Shown: positions 6,301 to 41,443 of the stretch, piece by piece
Layout: every line of letters begins with the position of its first letter
How positions within the stretch are numbered: position 1 is the first letter of the stretch
NCBI GenBank assembly: GCA_964494885.1
Contig: CAZBTH010000001.1
Location: forward strand, 46,319 to 110,318
DNA: 64,000 bases
DNA from: an uncultured Gammaproteobacteria bacterium
GTDB taxonomy: Bacteria > Patescibacteriota > Microgenomatia > UBA8517
Direction of reading: 5' to 3'
Program-made: the position numbers and the translations under genes
Notes under the pieces: generated by a model
What the model was told of the DNA's origin: nothing
Seen by the model: the letters and a program-made list of their open reading frames with translations, nothing else
Database searches by the model: none

Positions 6301-6840
6301 TGTATATTCATGTCTTTGAATCTCAAAGTAAAAATCATCTTTAAAAGTATCTAGATAAAAATCGACGAGTTCTTTTGTGGTTGTTGTATCACCGCGAGCT
6401 ATGGCCTGACCGATTTCCGCTTGCGGGCAACCGGACGTGCAAATTAGACCTTTTGAATATTTTTTTAAAGTTTCATGATCCATCCTAGGCCGATAATAAA
6501 AACCCTCGACCTGGGCAATGGATGCCAGCTTCATTAAATTTTTATAACCCTCATTATTTTTTGCCAAAAGTAGAATATGAAAGTTTTGAGCCCTACCTTT
6601 TTCCGCTTTTTCATGAAGATCCCCCGTAGTTATATACCCTTCCATCCCTAAAATTGGTTTAACACCCTGCTTTAACCCCTCCTTATAAAACTCAACCTCT
6701 CCGTACATTACACCGTGGTCGGTAATCGCAACAGATTCCATTCCTTGCTCTTTGACATGATTAAAGAGTTTCTTGATTTTACTTAACCCATCAAGAAGTG
6801 AATACTCTGTGTGTACATGAAGATGGGCAAATTTTGACAT
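3355..6840 (-). CDS. dnaE: DNA polymerase III alpha subunit
   Basis: 1161 aa; N-terminal PHP domain HLHVHTEYSLLDG; polymerase core and OB-fold tail. Confidence 0.9.
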   Translation of the reverse strand: MSKFAHLHVHTEYSLLDGLSKIKKLFNHVKEQGMESVAITDHGVMYGEVEFYKEGLKQGVKPILGMEGYITTGDLHEKAEKGRAQNFHILLLAKNNEGYKNLMKLASIAQVEGFYYRPRMDHETLKKYSKGLICTSGCPQAEIGQAIARGDTTTTKELVDFYLDTFKDDFYFEIQRHEYTKWLTKAPTAEIKSTLNELQETENKWNEGIIKLSREYGVPLVATNDAHYIKQEDAMAQDALVCVATGKNMSETKRLRYIDAQTFYLRSPSEMEALFPDYPDALENTVKLSEKCNVEITLGKWFFPKFPLPEGVTADEQLSSLAHEALKEKLPDGGKTALDRLEHELDIISTKGYSAYFLIVRDLAKWTREHGIIQNTRGSAAGSLVSYVLGITTVDPLKYYLPFERFLNPFRPSPPDIDFDVADDKRDQIIEYITKTYGKDNVAQICTFGRMLSRAAVRDVARVLGYPYNVGDKIAKLIPPPKQGFPITISKALEETPNLRDLYGTDPDTKKVLDLAMQVEGSARHVSVHAAGVVVAPTDITDFSPVQREPSGEKIITQYEMHAAEEVGLIKFDILGIRNLAILGSAIDIVEKAYGTRIDLHKISLEDKKTFEMLARGETMGVFQFAGGGMTKYLKELKPNRVEDLMAMVALYRPGPIAVIPEYIKRKSNPKLVEYLDPRMEKFLGASYGLIVYQDDLLFCAIDLAGYTWEEADKFRKAVGKKIPEEMAAQKDKFVKGTIEHGQTAEFAEELWKLFEPFQSYGFNKAHAASYGIVAYYTAYMKANYPVEYMTALLTAEASDKDKISMAINECRRMKIKVLPPDINESSIGFTIQDGAIRFGLSAVKNVGEVAIDIILTARKEGKFESFADFLERVDARKVNKKVLESLIKVGAMGMFGGRSTLLASIDKIREKVAKPKGDDNQQGLFATGDLKKTEAASVITIENIQEFGDDELESLERQLLGFSLTAKPISELVGPLEFQSTHKIFEITPEEYFSDLVRIVAVINEVRIITTKKTGAEMAFVKVDDGTGQIDLVVFPKIFKSTRDFWLAGKPLLVVGKVDFRDETPSILVENIETLSSLNEKKQRDVFIKIPGNADANSLKRLKELLTNNLGDQYAYLLFDASGGEKRVKKVKLPFQISWNETLAKGIADILETAKIQSVT

Positions 6841-14023: not shown

Positions 14024-14297
14024 GGGGTCGTAGCTCAACTGGCTAGAGCGCTTCCCTGTCAAATGTGGCAGCTCCTAGTAGTAATATTAGGATGAAAAAC
14101 CGGGCTAATTCGGGGAAACCCCAATCGAAGTCGAAGGGTAATCCCGAGCTAAACTCTGATTAAATCGGAGAAATGTGTAGAGACTATACACCCGGCGTCC
14201 TGAGTGAAATCGAAGGATGATGAGATAGTCCAAGCTTTTTGGAAACAAAAAGATTTTCGCACGGAAGAGGTTGCGAGTCCGAATCTCGTCGATCCCG
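14024..14297 (+). tRNA. tRNA-Asp (GUC) interrupted by a group I intron (exons 14024-14059 and 14260-14297)
   Basis: Exons fold as acceptor GGGGTCG/CGATCCC plus G73, D-arm GCTC..GAGC, anticodon stem CTTCC/GGAAG, loop CTGT|CAC, T-loop TCCGAAT. The exon U before the intron and the intron-terminal G fit group I splicing. Confidence 0.75.
14060..14259 (+). ncRNA. Group I self-splicing intron (IC3-like) in the tRNA-Asp anticodon loop
   Basis: Conserved core GUGUAGAGACUAUACACC (P7 5' strand, very close to the Azoarcus/Anabaena tRNA introns) and GAGAUAGUCCAAG (P7 3' strand). P9 hairpin CUUUUUGGAAACAAAAAG. The internal guide GGCAG pairs with exon CUGU|C. Terminal G at 14259. Confidence 0.7.
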
Positions 14298-14413
14298 CCC
14301 CAAATTCCCATTGACTTCGGTTTGATCATAGTCTAAATTCAGGCTAACTTCGGTGCTACCAAAAAGGGTGGCTTGCCCCCCGAAGCTTCAGCGAAGGGGG
14401 GTGAATTTATTTG

Positions 14414-14950
14414 ATGAACTTTTATCTAAAAAAATTTTTAAAAAAATTAAAGCTTAACGAAGAGAATATTAGCATGGTTTTGGGGGCTTTGGTCATAGTA
14501 ATTGTGGGGATTTTGATTGTAAATTACTTCAGAGATAAAAAGGGTGAAACGTTAAACGGCGCCAATACCGGAAGTGAATCACAAAAAGAACATGTGGTTG
14601 TCAAAGGGGAAACTCTTTGGTCCATAGCAGAAGATAGATACGGTTCCGGATACAACTGGGTAGACGTTAAAAAAGCCAACGAACTTAAATCGGATACGAT
14701 AGAAATTGGCCAAAAACTAACATTACCGGAAGTTTCAGCCAAAAAGCCTACATCAACAAAACCAACTTTGACCACAAAAGTGGAAACAGTATCAGGAGAC
14801 AGTTATACGGTAGTCAAAGGAGACACTCTTTGGAGTATATCGTTACGCGCATACGGAGACGGATACAAATGGGTAAGTGTTGCAAAAGCAAACAAACTTG
14901 CTAATCCAAATGTAATCCACGTAGGGAATGTATTAACTCTACCTCGTTGA
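14414..14950 (+). CDS. LysM-repeat membrane-anchored protein
   Basis: N-terminal TM and two LysM repeats (VVKGETLWSIAEDRYG... and VVKGDTLWSISLRAYG...). Confidence 0.8.
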   Translation: MNFYLKKFLKKLKLNEENISMVLGALVIVIVGILIVNYFRDKKGETLNGANTGSESQKEHVVVKGETLWSIAEDRYGSGYNWVDVKKANELKSDTIEIGQKLTLPEVSAKKPTSTKPTLTTKVETVSGDSYTVVKGDTLWSISLRAYGDGYKWVSVAKANKLANPNVIHVGNVLTLPR

Positions 14951-35356: not shown

Positions 35357-37219
35357 GTGCTGTCTTATCAGATGTTGAAGAAGATTTCTTTTCGAATTAC
35401 AGTTTTGGTAATTGTATTGCCGTGCTTATTTGCCTCGGCCGTAACTATTATCAAAGCTTCTTCGCAAATATGGAGTCTTCAATCAACTTCTGATTGTTCA
35501 GGCTATGGCGGTAATGGTGAAACCTTCGATAATCTTTGCTATAACCAAAACGGCGTCAACAGCACTATACCTTGGATTCACAGTAGCGATCCTGCAATAC
35601 ATTTTGATGTAATAGTTGGTCACACGTACGAATTTAGCGAAACTACAAATTTTATAGGTGTAGGTGGCGATTTTATTGCCAATTTTTTAACCGACGGACA
35701 GGGTAAAGATTATGGATCCGGTGACGATTGGATATGTCCCACAGCAAAATGTTCACATGGTGGTTGGGCCAAAACTTTTACAGCAACCAGTAAAGATCTG
35801 TATTTTGCACAAGGTTCTGGCTGTTCTTCCTCTACAAGCTGTTATACCACCAATTTACTGCTAAATGATTTAAGTATTGCTGATTCACCCACCCCTACAC
35901 CAACTCCCACAGAAACACCCACCCCAACTCCATCACCAACCTCAACCCCCACTCCTTCTCCAACTCCGTCACCCCTACCCGTTACTAAAACAGTTTTTGT
36001 TCCTGGTTTTGGTGGAAGCTGGGACACATCTTCAATATTAAGTTGTCAGTATGATCCAAATGCTACGTGGGGTTTGGCGCCATTTGCAGAAAGTGTTTAT
36101 AATCCCCTCTTAACCACACTTGTACCATCTGACTGGAGTGTAATTCCCTTTTATTACGATTGGAGACAACCGGTTACCCAAAATGGAACATTACTAAAAC
36201 AAAAAGTAGACTCTTTAAATGAAAAGGTTAATCTTGTAGGACATAGTATGGGTGGTCTTGTTGGTAGAGCATATTTGGAGGAAGAATTCGATTCAAATAA
36301 AATTAGCAGCTTCTTAACCGTCGGCTCACCTCACAGAGGAGTTGCAATAGCCTATCCCGCTTGGGGAGGCGGTGAAATTTGGACTGATAATTTTCTGGCA
36401 AAAATTGCCACAACTCTTTACCTTAAGCTTTGCGGTCAAAAAGGTCCACTTTCCAACAACCGCGAAACTCTACAAAACATTTTTCCATCATTTCGTGACT
36501 TATTGCCTATTGATCCGTATTTAGTAAGTACTAGAAATTTTTCTCCTCCAAACATAAATGATGTTGACATGAACGCCAAAAACGTATGGCTGGTTGGAGA
36601 CACCAAATGGCCAATTTCGAATATCAAATTAGGCTCTTTATCCGGATCGGGATTTGCAACTCTACAAAACATCCCAGTCAAAGAACCGTCAAACCGTGAT
36701 ATCTCCTTGGGAAACTGGACTGATGGCAAGCCAGCAGGAAAAATTTACTCAACCAGCGGCGACGGAACAGTTCTCACCTCAAGCAGCGATATTAATGACC
36801 CAGCAGTTGAATTCCATCCAATAATTTCGCAAACGCACTCAGGCCTTGTGGCAAGTAATAATGGTTTAAATCAAATTCGTGAGTTTTTAGGTTTATCGCA
36901 AATTGTGGCAACAAGCTCAACTTTTTCTGAACCAACTTCTGCCTTAATATTAATCGGTTATCCGGCCAAGTTTTGGATAGCTGACCAAAAAGGAAATATT
37001 GTAAAAGATAAAAATGGCATGGTTGCTATTATGAATCCTAAATCGGGTATTTTCAAAATTAGTCTCTCACCAAAAAGTGGCAACACCAGGTTTATAATTG
37101 CTCAATTTTTAGCTAACGGGGATGTAAAATATAAAGAATATAGTTTCAAAGGTTTTGCCAATCAATTCAAAACTCTAAAATTTGATATCAATAACCCCCA
37201 AGAAGATATCCTCAACTAA
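35357..37219 (+). CDS. Secreted alpha/beta-hydrolase lipase/esterase with a Pro/Thr-rich linker
   Basis: Signal/TM N-terminus, Cys-rich N-domain, PTPTPTPTETPTPTPSPTSTP linker, nucleophile elbow GHSMGG. Confidence 0.65.
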   Translation: MLSYQMLKKISFRITVLVIVLPCLFASAVTIIKASSQIWSLQSTSDCSGYGGNGETFDNLCYNQNGVNSTIPWIHSSDPAIHFDVIVGHTYEFSETTNFIGVGGDFIANFLTDGQGKDYGSGDDWICPTAKCSHGGWAKTFTATSKDLYFAQGSGCSSSTSCYTTNLLLNDLSIADSPTPTPTPTETPTPTPSPTSTPTPSPTPSPLPVTKTVFVPGFGGSWDTSSILSCQYDPNATWGLAPFAESVYNPLLTTLVPSDWSVIPFYYDWRQPVTQNGTLLKQKVDSLNEKVNLVGHSMGGLVGRAYLEEEFDSNKISSFLTVGSPHRGVAIAYPAWGGGEIWTDNFLAKIATTLYLKLCGQKGPLSNNRETLQNIFPSFRDLLPIDPYLVSTRNFSPPNINDVDMNAKNVWLVGDTKWPISNIKLGSLSGSGFATLQNIPVKEPSNRDISLGNWTDGKPAGKIYSTSGDGTVLTSSSDINDPAVEFHPIISQTHSGLVASNNGLNQIREFLGLSQIVATSSTFSEPTSALILIGYPAKFWIADQKGNIVKDKNGMVAIMNPKSGIFKISLSPKSGNTRFIIAQFLANGDVKYKEYSFKGFANQFKTLKFDINNPQEDILN

Positions 37220-38034: not shown

Positions 38035-38616
38035 ATGGCACTCCCCGAAGTTCTTTCAGAAAGCGAAGTACCTTATGTCCCCTTCTCTGAAAACCCCAAA
38101 ATTATTACTGTGGGAGATTTTAAAGTCTTCGAATATGTTAGCCCCACCGAAATGGCAAAATATATCAATTTGCTGTCCAATAAGGTCAAACTTGACACCT
38201 TTGATGCTGTTCTGGTGAACATGAATGGCGGAATGTTTCTGTTTGATTGTCTTTCGCGTTTACAAGGGTACACCAAAGATCCTGTAAAAATTGAGTATCA
38301 CCGGCCCGAAAGGGCATATGGCGCAACGATTATATCCCCGGTTCCACCTGAACTTAGACACCTAAAACTTTTAGGAGTAGATGATATTTACGACAGTGGT
38401 GGAGTTTTCCGTGCCATTATGGCCGATTCCGGCCCATTGTCGGAAGCTGTGGCTCTCGTCACAAAAAAGGGTATTCCAAACCAGATACAAATTCCAAACA
38501 TTACCATCGGATTAAAAATTGATGATCGCTGGGTCGGTGGTTGCGGCATGAATCTTGGTGCCCCCGGTGAAGAAAATATCTTTAGAAACTACCCAGGACT
38601 AGTAGTAAAAATTTAA
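38035..38616 (+). CDS. Phosphoribosyltransferase-family protein (purine PRTase-like)
   Basis: PRPP-binding motif LLGVDDIYDSGG. Confidence 0.6.
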   Translation: MALPEVLSESEVPYVPFSENPKIITVGDFKVFEYVSPTEMAKYINLLSNKVKLDTFDAVLVNMNGGMFLFDCLSRLQGYTKDPVKIEYHRPERAYGATIISPVPPELRHLKLLGVDDIYDSGGVFRAIMADSGPLSEAVALVTKKGIPNQIQIPNITIGLKIDDRWVGGCGMNLGAPGEENIFRNYPGLVVKI

Positions 38617-38673
38617 ATAATTTTACTAGTACTTGTGTTTACTCCTTAACCCCAAATATAATGAAGGTTATAT

Positions 38674-39225
38674 ATGTTTGGTAAAATTGGCGCGTTTTTT
38701 TTGGATATATTGGAAGTAATAGTTTTTGCGATCGGCATCTTCTTTTTTGTCTATCTTCTTATTATGCGTCCCCATAAAATTAAAGGACAATCTATGCATC
38801 CCAATTTTCCGGACGGTGAATACTTATTAACCGAAAAAGTAACCTACTATACCAGAAGCCCCAAGAGAGGAGATGTCGTAGTTTTTACCCCACCCGTCTC
38901 GGAAACAGACGAATTTATTAAAAGAGTTATAGGGCTTCCCGGAGAGCGTGTAATGATTCAAGACAGTCGTGTCTACATCGACGACAAACTACTTAACGAA
39001 CCATATCTTGCAAGCAATATTTATACAGAAAATGAGGGGTTTTTAAAGGATGGGGAAAATTATACAATTCCTGAAGGCCAATATTTTGTTATGGGAGACA
39101 ACAGACCCCACTCCTCCGATTCCCGTGCTTGGGGTCCCATTACTAAAAAGTCAATTAGCGGTAGAGCCTGGATAATTTATTGGCCTCTAGATCTTTCGGG
39201 AGTCGTAAAAATACCGACGTATTAA
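38674..39225 (+). CDS. lepB: Signal peptidase I
   Basis: GQSMHP (Ser box), GDVVVF, GDNRPHSSDSRAWG. Confidence 0.85.
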   Translation: MFGKIGAFFLDILEVIVFAIGIFFFVYLLIMRPHKIKGQSMHPNFPDGEYLLTEKVTYYTRSPKRGDVVVFTPPVSETDEFIKRVIGLPGERVMIQDSRVYIDDKLLNEPYLASNIYTENEGFLKDGENYTIPEGQYFVMGDNRPHSSDSRAWGPITKKSISGRAWIIYWPLDLSGVVKIPTY

Positions 39226-40083: not shown

Positions 40084-40341
40084 CTAGGCACTAGCAACTA
40101 CACTAACAACTCTTTTACCCAGCTTCTTAGTAAATTTAACAATGCCGTCGGCAACTGAGTATAAAGTATGATCACGGCCTAACTTTGCTCCGGCTCCTTT
40201 ACCAAAAGTGGTACCGCGTTGACGGACTAAAATTTGCCCCCTGCCCACTTTTTCGCCACCTGAAACTTTTACACCCAATCTTTTACCTGCCGGGCTAACA
40301 TGTTGTGAAGCTTTTCCACCCGCTGCTTTATGTGTTGACAT
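40084..40341 (-). CDS. rpmA: 50S ribosomal protein L27
   Basis: MSTHKAAGG...KRLGVK...GQILVRQRGT; start trimmed from the track ORF (40422) to MSTHK. Confidence 0.85.
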   Translation of the reverse strand: MSTHKAAGGKASQHVSPAGKRLGVKVSGGEKVGRGQILVRQRGTTFGKGAGAKLGRDHTLYSVADGIVKFTKKLGKRVVSVVASA

Positions 40342-40415
40342 CCTTCGCACAATATAAATGATGTTTTCACAGTTGTCAAGAGGGTTGGTAAGATGTATTA
40401 AATCATATTTCGTTC

Positions 40416-40443
40416 TTGACAAAAGAATAATATAGGCTATAAT
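40416..40443 (+). promoter_or_regulatory. Consensus sigma70 promoter (TTGACA-16-TATAAT) for the GC-rich inserted gene
   Basis: TTGACA 40416-40421, TATAAT 40438-40443. The -35 lies in a 9-bp inverted repeat (ttgtcaaga / tcttgacaa) that also supplies a TTGACA for the divergent rpmA promoter. Confidence 0.55.
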
Positions 40444-40503
40444 TCTGGCCTAATACGCATCGTGCGTAAATTCCTGAGTTTGCACATAAAAAAGGAGAAT
40501 AAG

Positions 40504-41046
40504 ATGCTCGATTTAAGCAATTTGACCGGTGCTAACGGCACCAAGTTCGTGATTCATCTGGAAAACCAGGCAGATCTGGCAAAGATTGAGCACCAATTCC
40601 ATGACAATGCCTCGCTTTTGGCTTTCGTCCAGGATGGTGCGGATTTTGATCTCGGCGGTTCCAACCTCGGCCCGGACAAGATCGTGCACGCCATGTTCGC
40701 TAAAAATCGGCGCGTGACCTACCTGACCGAAGAGAAGTACGTTGAATGGGCGAAAACCGGCGATTGGCAAAATGTCGACCCCGATGGCGACAATGAACCC
40801 GAAGCGAGCCTTAATGATGTCCTGTCAATGCTCCTCGGCGGTGGCAGTCATTCGAATTTCACGGGTCCGACCGATGATCAAATCGCGAAATACGCCAGCA
40901 ACCCGACTGCTCAGATGATCAGTGGCGAGGACGCAAACTGCTCTTTTTGCCTTCGGCCTACTGGTGGCTGCATCGGTCGTGACGCTTCGTTCGACGAAGC
41001 CGCTTTCGACGCAGAAATTCTCACGCGCAAGGCTGCATTGAACTAA
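40504..41046 (+). CDS. GC-rich (~52%) acidic protein of unknown function, apparently horizontally acquired
   Basis: ATG 8 nt after AAAAAGGAGAA. The track ORF begins at a TTG at 40462. Composition is clearly different from its neighbours. LSMLLGG double-Gly-like segment followed by a Cys-containing C-terminus. Confidence 0.6.
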   Translation: MLDLSNLTGANGTKFVIHLENQADLAKIEHQFHDNASLLAFVQDGADFDLGGSNLGPDKIVHAMFAKNRRVTYLTEEKYVEWAKTGDWQNVDPDGDNEPEASLNDVLSMLLGGGSHSNFTGPTDDQIAKYASNPTAQMISGEDANCSFCLRPTGGCIGRDASFDEAAFDAEILTRKAALN

Positions 41047-41072
41047 CGAATTACTTCTTTTATTGTTATTCC

Positions 41073-41136
41073 GCGGCTGGAACCAAAGTGAATGTTCACA
41101 AACATTTACCCAAAAGTTCCAGCCGCAAGATTTTTC
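41073..41136 (+). terminator. Compound hairpin plus U-run terminator of the GC-rich gene
   Basis: GCGGCTGGAAC ... GTTCCAGCCGC (11-bp stem) enclosing an inner hairpin AATGTTCACAAACATT, then AAGATTTTTC. Confidence 0.5.
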
Positions 41137-41443
41137 AGGAAATTTTCTCCACCAGAAGTCTTGCATATTGAGGTCTAAATCCTGTATGCTTCCTGTAGCG
41201 TGATTTTGCTTTAAATTTATAGATCTCGATTTTTTCTCCTTTTTCCAGCTCTGTTACAACCTTTAAGGCTACTTTTACATCTTTGAGGACCGGCTTACCC
41301 ACTTTTACCTTTTCCCCGTCCACGAACATAAGTACTTCAGTTTCAAAACCCTTAATATCGATAAGTTTGTCCACCAAAAGCTCTTTGCCTTCCTCGACCT
41401 TATATTGCCTGCCGCCAATCCTGACTACCGCATATTTATTCAT
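41135..41443 (-). CDS. rplU: 50S ribosomal protein L21
   Basis: MNKYAVVRIGGRQYKVEEG; start trimmed to MNKYAVV. Confidence 0.85.
   Translation of the reverse strand: MNKYAVVRIGGRQYKVEEGKELLVDKLIDIKGFETEVLMFVDGEKVKVGKPVLKDVKVALKVVTELEKGEKIEIYKFKAKSRYRKHTGFRPQYARLLVEKIS

Follow-up and report, generated by a model that had tools for sequence, protein, structure and literature searches.

An antisense single-gene cassette of an unnamed Microgenomates family in the spacer between rplU and rpmA

The DNA analyzed here is a 64-kb stretch of contig CAZBTH010000001.1 (hereafter, the window) from a genome of the Woesebacteria, in which the genes for the ribosomal proteins bL21 (rplU; PF00829, E 7.5e-23) and bL27 (rpmA; PF01016, E 4e-23), both identified by Pfam, are separated by 793 bp that contain an open reading frame (ORF) of 180 amino acids on the opposite strand. 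The Pfam matches and the size of the gap bear out the original prediction, made from the letters of this stretch, that the pair is interrupted by an antisense ORF. The features of the locus, in window coordinates, are as follows.

40084-40341, minus strand: rpmA (bL27), 85 aa, N-terminus MSTHKAAGG (Pfam PF01016 and sequence)
40379-40351, minus strand: predicted rpmA promoter, TTGACA-17-TATATT, matching the consensus at 11/12 positions, one of 3 such sites in the 64 kb
40380-40415, no strand: A/T-rich segment between the two promoters, host-derived, the upstream region of the rpmA promoter
40416-40443, plus strand: predicted cassette promoter, TTGACA-16-TATAAT, 12/12 consensus, with the family-conserved -10 region AATATAGGnTATAAT
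40454-40468, plus strand: 5' leader hairpin, TACGCA-TCG-TGCGTA, about 3-4 nt from the predicted 5' end of the transcript
40492-40497, plus strand: Shine-Dalgarno sequence AAGGAG, 6 nt ahead of the ATG (from the sequence)
40504-41046, plus strand: 180-aa ORF, member of an unnamed Microgenomates family (family search, alignment, AlphaFold2 model and dN/dS)
41073-41126, no strand: compound GC-rich hairpin with an 11-bp outer and a 9-bp inner stem, followed by AAGATTTTT, directly past the rplU stop codon, which lies on the opposite strand
41135-41443, minus strand: rplU (bL21), 102 aa (Pfam PF00829)

The GC content of the ORF is 0.532, compared to 0.392 for the window, and exceeds that of 99.9% of the 543-bp segments; the only equally GC-rich stretch in the 64 kb is the tRNA cluster at 800-1300. 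The GC content at third codon positions (GC3) is 0.61 in the ORF, compared to 0.29-0.42 in the neighboring genes and 0.35 over all long ORFs (18,000 host codons). When scored with a host codon model, the ORF has the most atypical codon usage among the 62 window ORFs of at least 100 aa: it leaves NNA codons, such as GGA, ACA, and AGA, unused, and uses the G-ending codons CCG, GCG, and CGG. The same protein written in host codons would be expected to have a GC content of 0.44, whereas 0.535 was observed. The predicted compositional difference from the neighbors is thus real, and extends to codon usage. An Rfam scan of the insert returned no match even at E<=1, so a known structured RNA does not account for the GC-rich island. 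The ORF itself proved to be a genuine gene, and the family to which it belongs has no name.

A second contig, from an aquifer metagenome (L001, 710 bp; here and below, L numbers designate compared loci and P numbers designate family proteins), is identical to the window at 706 of 715 positions and has the rplU junction in common with it. The 7-bp segment TCAATGC (40825-40831, plus strand) is missing from this contig, which shifts the reading frame in the linker of the encoded protein.

The cassette promoter is the sole site in the window with a 12/12 match when both strands are scanned, as the original prediction of a perfect TTGACA-16-TATAAT ahead of the ORF would have it, and AATATAGG-n-TATAAT or a close variant was found in 9 of 10 gap copies. 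The predicted leader hairpin and ribosome-binding site are also present, and (A)AGGAG was found in nearly all of the family copies. The folding energy of the window hairpin alone is not significant (z -0.9). When the leader hairpins were tested sequence by sequence against shuffles, a perfect hairpin of 5-7 bp, starting 8-11 nt past the -10 element, was found in all 10 family copies, with a chance of 1-8% per copy; its distance from the expected 5' end in the ten copies is 2-4 nt. Five different stems occur (TACGCA/TGCGTA, TATGCA/TGCATA, ACGCGG/CCGCGT, GGAAA/TTTCC, and CACACAA/TTGTGTG), with loops of 2-7 nt. The changing stems and the variable loop length favor an RNA hairpin over a fixed-spacing operator, and the hairpin may function as an mRNA stabilizer. 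Alternatively, the stem TACGCA/TGCGTA, which is present in 6 of 10 copies, could be a sequence-specific binding site.

Downstream of the ORF, the hairpin at 41073-41126 has a folding energy (dG) of -31.7 (z -6.0) on the plus strand and -31.8 (z -4.5) on the minus strand; a simple terminator scan skipped it because of the loop-size limit of that scan. The compound structure that had been described after the ORF is therefore present, with AAGATTTTT next to it, and the GC-rich stem followed by a T-run identifies it as the predicted intrinsic terminator of the cassette. Long GC-rich 3' hairpins of differing sequence were found in all of the stand-alone or terminal copies, and most are followed by a T-run. 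The cassette promoter, leader, and terminator share the AT-richness of the host and recur from copy to copy.

The separate rpmA promoter described in the original prediction is real, but it is not a product of the insertion. All relatives, whether or not the gap holds an insert, have the motif CTTGACAnCTGTGAAAA-n5-TTTATATT immediately ahead of rpmA, and the spacer motif CTGTGAAAA is conserved clade-wide, including the gaps of L003-L015. The presence of the promoter in relatives without an insert indicates that it is older than the cassette. The distance from the promoter end to the ATG is 9-20 nt in most relatives and 9 nt in the window, and is longest where the start region is duplicated (L004). 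This spacing implies that, in Woesebacteria-type genomes, the bL27 mRNA made from this promoter would be leaderless or near-leaderless. The duplication in L004 lies at 6310-6415, where the rplU-rpmA gap holds a short duplicate of the rpmA start region (GAAGGATATGTCAACACATA...) before the true start.

The rpmA and cassette promoters are arranged back-to-back, with 36 bp between their -35 hexamers. The 9-bp inverted repeat that had been noted around these hexamers exists in the window (ttgtcaaga, 40372-40380; tcttgacaa, 40413-40421), but it is probably incidental, because only the hexamers are kept in the other copies. The A/T-rich segment between the promoters (40380-40415) is retained in the empty site of L003, is about 95% identical in L002, and is recognizable in L026, L029, and L047, indicating that it is host DNA outside the cassette. 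For L003, a close relative with an empty site, the breakpoint lies at the cassette -35 box, indicating that the inserted unit extends from the -35 box through the terminator hairpin.

An exhaustive HMMER search of 1.84e9 proteins found 25 cluster representatives of the family at E<=1e-3; a word-indexed search found only P0001, a near-identical fragment on the 710-bp aquifer contig. Eleven of the 14 located family loci are the rplU-rpmA gap, with the gene in antisense orientation (the window, L002, L025, L026, L027/28, L029, L030, L047, L069, L085, and the P0021 contig), and they include members that share only about 26-28% identity with the window protein. Contig look-up placed P0002, P0004, P0008, P0011, and P0021 antisense in the gap, and the antisense member in the L002 gap is P0017. 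The gap of P0006 (L027/28) also has an adjacent tandem paralog, P0016 (hhalign probability 100), and P0003, again antisense in the gap, has a duplicated N-domain. Only P0027-P0029, of Shapirobacteria type, lie elsewhere, as a syntenic stand-alone gene near dprA. As seen so far, the family is restricted to Microgenomates (Woesebacteria and Shapirobacteria). At the dprA-linked loci L018, L021, and L023, a similar promoter, TGGACA-ACTCTGTGAAT..TATATT, lies ahead of the family gene.

The occupancy of the gap was assessed in two sets. Among GTDB species genomes of Woesebacteria/Microgenomates, with loci anchored on L21, 13 loci were informative: 10 are empty, with rplU and rpmA 56-106 bp apart, one contains the family (L002), and two contain unrelated antisense ORFs of 150 and 307 aa (L011 and L012). 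The clade-wide rpmA promoter, used as a DNA probe on metagenomes, yielded 54 loci, 51 of them informative, of which 44 are empty, 2 contain this family (L047 and L069), and 5 contain unrelated inserts on either strand (L032, L041, L052, L056, and L079). For the 64 informative loci combined, 54 are empty (about 84%), about 5% hold this family, and 7 (about 11%) hold unrelated genes. The fact that the gap is empty in most relatives and has several unrelated tenants indicates that it is a hotspot for accessory genes, among which this family is the most frequent.

Two further observations concern the gap. L041 (8284-9015) and L056 (2043-2808; both in promoter-oriented coordinates) carry sense-strand pairs of small ORFs of 117-127 aa, which are alike by eye (e.g., ..IKTVV..D....V..LELE..RDD...K.TAYF) and may represent a second recurrent tenant family of the hotspot. 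L016 and L017, which are distant L21 matches from Spirochaetota, have an rplU-rpmA gap of about 410 bp (6303-6717).

The gap copies have a flat ORF identity of 34-43%, against a host L21 identity of 61-96%. For the window and L002, L21 is 96% identical and the ORF 36.5% identical; for the window and L025, the values are 70% and 43%, respectively. The alleles thus appear to be decoupled from the host phylogeny. For the syntenic dprA lineage, the ORF is 58% identical, compared to 69-80% for its neighbors, and so evolves only moderately faster than they do; at such a rate, vertical descent would predict an identity of about 85-90% for the window-L002 pair, not 36.5%.

Direct evidence of exchange comes from L021 and L023. 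Their DNA is 100% identical over more than 2 kb on either side of the ORF, whereas the identity is 80-94% over the region upstream of the ORF and its first 150 codons, with a synonymous divergence (dS) of 0.26 and a ratio of nonsynonymous to synonymous divergence (dN/dS) of 0.25. The identical flanks around a divergent ORF clearly indicate a recombination import. The dN/dS of this pair, the closest that is alignable, indicates that the protein is under purifying selection. In addition, the gene just upstream of the family member is wholly replaced between the two (L021, 3100-3700; L023, 2390-3127), encoding a 172-aa protein with a weak AAA_18 match in one contig and an unrelated 245-aa protein in the other, indicating that the dprA-linked copy also borders a strain-variable spot.

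The GC3 of the ORF is above that of its host in all 13 copies for which DNA is available, by 5 to 34 points. Even the three syntenic, long-resident copies linked to dprA, which were apparently inherited vertically, have a GC3 of 0.39-0.43, compared to 0.21-0.23 for their hosts, and the unrelated inserts of L011 and L012 are not GC-rich. Since the GC excess is seen in every copy, it is characteristic of the family and says nothing about when the insertion occurred. Translational selection was rejected as the source of the high GC3, given that the ribosomal neighbors have a GC3 of 0.29-0.42 and that the ORF also uses CCG, GCG, and CGG. Possible causes are GC-biased gene conversion at a locus prone to recombination, serial transfer from Microgenomates of higher GC content (the host GC3 of L030 is already 0.50), and selection on the mRNA.

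In the family alignment, W82, C146, C149, C156, and R159 are invariant, and G12, H18, W88, F119, P122, F163, and D164 are nearly so. AlphaFold2, run on this alignment, gave a model with a predicted local distance difference test (pLDDT) value of 83, comprising two domains and a disordered linker. The N-domain (residues 1-90) consists of a strand, two helices, two strands, and a helix, the linker (93-116) is variable and of low confidence, and the C-domain (117-180) is helical, with the C-x2-C-x4-6-C-P-x-R loop at a pLDDT of 85-98. The product is acidic, as predicted (pI 4.46; most members, 4.4-5.7), and inspection by eye revealed neither a hydrophobic N-terminal signal nor a membrane segment. 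We infer a cytoplasmic, highly expressed protein whose Cys3-Arg site would bind a metal ion or cluster, most likely a metal ion or an iron-sulfur (Fe-S) cluster held by C-x2-C-x4-6-C-P-x-R.

The statement that the product matches no named family was borne out by all of the searches. Scans of the window protein and of all family members against Pfam, NCBIfam, PHROGs, and PADLOC gave nothing significant, with PADLOC yielding only single-member hits at E>0.003; a known anti-phage defense or phage family was therefore rejected as an identity. Sequence-profile searches of the PDB, run with the whole alignment and with either domain separately, gave nothing significant: the only low-E match of the C-domain was to a helix bundle designed de novo, with no matched segment passing alone, and the RING-finger matches had an E of about 1. 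A Foldseek search of the model against the PDB and BFVD gave no significant fold match. The IMG label "RPN8/RPN11" on P0024, which would imply a JAMM/MPN protein, was rejected, as P0024 has no Pfam match even at E<=10; a loose version of the motif H-x-H-x7-S-x2-D occurs in only one of the 24 members (P0009), and neither in P0024 nor in the window protein.

Several known systems resemble the cassette in part. Prp (YsxB, PF04327) is a cysteine protease whose gene lies between rplU and rpmA in Firmicutes and in some further phyla. Like prp, the window gene is small and lies between these two genes, and conserved Cys and His residues are found in both products. Unlike prp, it is on the opposite strand with its own promoter and terminator, and hence is not co-oriented or co-transcribed, it occurs in only about 5% of related genomes, and there is no sequence match: neither the window protein nor any of the 24 members matched PF04327 at E<=1. 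The local L27, which begins with MSTHKAAGGKA and is aligned by the Pfam L27 model from residue 4, also lacks a cleavable N-terminal extension. The analogy to Prp drawn in the original prediction therefore fails.

Chromosomal integration hotspots, or "islets," in which accessory genes that vary among strains sit between conserved core genes and are exchanged through the flanks by homologous recombination, have in common with the rplU-rpmA gap that different genes occupy one site, which is mostly empty, with atypical composition and a recombination mosaic. The rplU-rpmA unit differs in its size, just one very small gene, in having a promoter, 5' hairpin, and terminator that are conserved and specific to the family, and in that one family recurs at one site in hosts whose L21 proteins are only 61-70% identical, with no integrase, tRNA, or repeats. 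Integron cassettes are also single ORFs that end in a long imperfect hairpin, with different ORFs at one site; here, in contrast, the gene has its own promoter, the hairpin is followed by a T-run, and the genes called at the loci that were looked up include no integrase. The integron core-site consensus is RYYYAAC/GTTRRRY, and the hairpin termini GCGGCTGGAAC..GTTCCAGCCGC and their variants are unlike it by eye, so that an integron cassette was rejected.

The leader resembles those of Escherichia coli ompA and Bacillus subtilis aprE, in which 5'-terminal stem-loops stabilize the mRNA. A short stable hairpin lies within a few nucleotides of the predicted 5' end, a strong Shine-Dalgarno sequence follows downstream, and the structure is kept despite stem changes, which would be consistent with a similar role in the cassette. 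The cassette leader differs in that the stem TACGCA/TGCGTA is kept in 6 of 10 copies. For the C-domain, the closest likenesses are to WhiB-like Fe-S proteins and to the "iron staple" nucleases Cas4 and AddB, which have C-x2-C-x5-C clusters, preceded in Cas4/AddB by Q-x3-Y. The family has C-x2-C-x4-6-C near the C-terminus of a small protein, with Q127..Y131 ahead of the cluster. However, it has only three invariant Cys residues with variable spacing, lacks nuclease catalytic residues, and has another taxonomic range; sequence searches of Pfam and the PDB gave no match, and none of the fold matches was significant. WhiB-like proteins and ferredoxin CP motifs were dropped for want of profile support.

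The reading that we consider probable, although by no means secure, is that the window carries a monocistronic accessory cassette of an unnamed Microgenomates family, whose usual home is the rplU-rpmA spacer, in antisense orientation. The spacer would tolerate inserts because rpmA has its own clade-conserved promoter, which would make read-through from rplU dispensable and its loss harmless. The cassette would be self-sufficient, comprising a sigma-70-type consensus promoter, a 5' hairpin, a strong Shine-Dalgarno sequence, the ORF, and a hairpin with a T-run, and its expression may be high and constitutive. The 3' hairpin, which faces the end of rplU, would end cassette transcription and may insulate the convergent genes from each other. 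Homologous recombination through the ribosomal flanks, between related genomes, would account for the gain, loss, and replacement of cassettes; recombination was demonstrated for one near-identical genome pair (L021/L023), and the same may apply to the window locus. The product would be a cytoplasmic, acidic, two-domain protein under purifying selection with a putative metal or Fe-S site, and its high GC content, being a family trait in all hosts, would not by itself be a sign of recent foreign origin.

Several points weigh against this reading. The association with a single site persists down to about 25% identity, and could also stem from a function tied to rpmA/rplU, in addition to recombination that locks the gene to its locus. 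The 7-bp frameshift allele of L001 is either a variant of a dispensable gene or an assembly error. The background DNA identity of the window and L002 is about 85%, i.e., a difference of about 15%, and, strictly speaking, near-neutral divergence in place could still have produced the allele difference of this pair. The reading does not account for the persistent GC excess. The promoter, stabilizer, and terminator are assigned putative roles from their sequences, and for metal binding there are only three invariant Cys residues with no invariant fourth ligand, and no significant match to any metal-binding family in the profile, PDB, and fold searches.

The original prediction had offered two explanations, one of which was the recent horizontal insertion of a self-contained cassette. 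The cassette is indeed self-contained, absent from its close relative L003 and from most relatives, and atypical in composition, with a GC content of 0.53 versus 0.39 and the most atypical codon usage of 62 ORFs, as would be expected if a recent one-off transfer from a higher-GC organism outside the clade had dropped it between rplU and rpmA. Nevertheless, such an arrival is unlikely, as 10 other loci have a family member at the same site, in the same orientation, and with a similar GC excess; relatives carrying the same gene at the same place with similar composition are what the prediction itself had named as speaking against it. In addition, the located members are all in Microgenomates-type contexts, the AT-rich, host-like regulatory parts are common to the copies, and the GC excess is also seen in the syntenic, long-resident copies. 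Phage, plasmid, and viral collections gave no relatives (tblastn against phage and plasmid collections and pattern scans of IMG/VR). The other explanation, that the gene is a lineage-specific partner of bL27/bL21, such as a ribosome-associated factor or an rpmA regulator, would account for the retention of the gene at this locus, and it draws on position: 11 of 14 located loci are in the gap, even at about 26-28% identity, and the promoters stand back-to-back with -35 hexamers 36 bp apart. Position is the part of this proposal that stood. About 84% of the relatives have no insert, about 11% have unrelated genes there, and one lineage has the gene near dprA; moreover, the protein has no similarity to Prp or any ribosomal factor, L27 has no extension to process, and the alleles are exchanged independently of the ribosomal flanks, all of which makes such a partner improbable.

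A selfish, free-standing gene of the homing-endonuclease kind, targeting the conserved empty rplU-rpmA spacer and inserting a copy of itself there, seems highly unlikely. Weak Foldseek hits lean to PD-(D/E)XK nucleases, but the structural match to the nuclease core is not significant, the catalytic D...(D/E)-x-K is lacking in that no acidic or lysine residue of the N-domain is invariant, and the proteins are acidic; on these grounds, PD-(D/E)XK nucleases, whether Cas4-like or homing endonucleases, were rejected. Still harder to credit, to the point of being nearly negligible, is the precursor of a secreted modified peptide, with a long leader, a double-glycine site, and a Cys-containing core, an idea raised by the original prediction. 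The segment LSMLLGG (residues 108-114) is real, with Leu at -4 and -7 relative to GG and a 66-aa Cys-containing segment after it; however, GG is not conserved and lies in the most variable, low-pLDDT linker, whereas the part downstream of GG is the best-conserved and confidently folded domain (pLDDT 85-98). The cassettes, which are all monocistronic or tandem copies, contain no peptidase-ABC transporter or modification enzyme, the genes listed for the loci that were looked up include neither a C39-peptidase ABC transporter nor a modification enzyme, and NCBIfam and Pfam gave no NHLP/Nif11 leader match. A more speculative and rather doubtful conjecture is that the gene is polymorphic and locked to its locus, and that diversifying or balancing selection acts on it, with deeply divergent alleles, tandem paralogs, and domain duplications exchanged by recombination at one site. 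The product would be a highly expressed Cys3 metalloprotein with one of two roles, either in conflict (self/non-self or phage-host) or as a partner, under certain conditions, of the ribosome or of rpmA expression, and the GC excess would be a by-product of frequent recombination through GC-biased gene conversion. If true, the reduced genomes of episymbiotic bacteria would contain a hypervariable locus of a new kind.

Other features of the window were noted in passing. A group I intron (RF00028, 90 bits, Rfam) lies at 14044-14252 within 14024-14300 on the plus strand. It is flanked by what appear to be two tRNA halves, GGGGTCGTAGCTCAACTGGCTAGAGCGCTTCC... and ...GGAAGAGGTTGCGAGTCCGAATCTCGTCGATCCCGCC, with matching acceptor stems, indicating an intron-interrupted tRNA, for which ARAGORN made no call; a 179-aa ORF (14411-14950) lies downstream. 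A 620-aa ORF with a Pro/Thr-rich linker (35357-37219, plus strand), whose counterpart in L030 matches the LCAT/PGAP1 lipase families, is only about 50% alignable between the window and L002 (background about 85%), and is thus a second fast-diverging gene nearby. At 38619-38626, L002 has about 1 kb of extra intergenic DNA relative to the window, which marks another small indel hotspot; by eye, we take the genes beside it to encode a phosphoribosyltransferase (38035-38616) and a signal peptidase (38674-39225).

Above all, these results correct a first impression: what looks like a fresh foreign insertion is a recurrent, clade-specific tenant of a tolerated hotspot. The arrangement and the protein family are of moderate interest and apparently undescribed so far; a full-text literature search combining rplU, rpmA, and Candidate Phyla Radiation (CPR) returned one paper, on ribosomal protein genes absent from metagenome-assembled genomes. 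The GC excess across the whole family cautions against composition alone as evidence of recent transfer, and L021/L023 show cleanly how recombination replaces alleles in CPR genomes. The conserved promoter of rpmA, documented here in Woesebacteria-type genomes, would allow the rplU-rpmA spacer to be an accessory-gene hotspot, and the unannotated family, with its invariant Cys3-Arg site and confident two-domain model, is a target for the biochemistry of CPR "dark matter."

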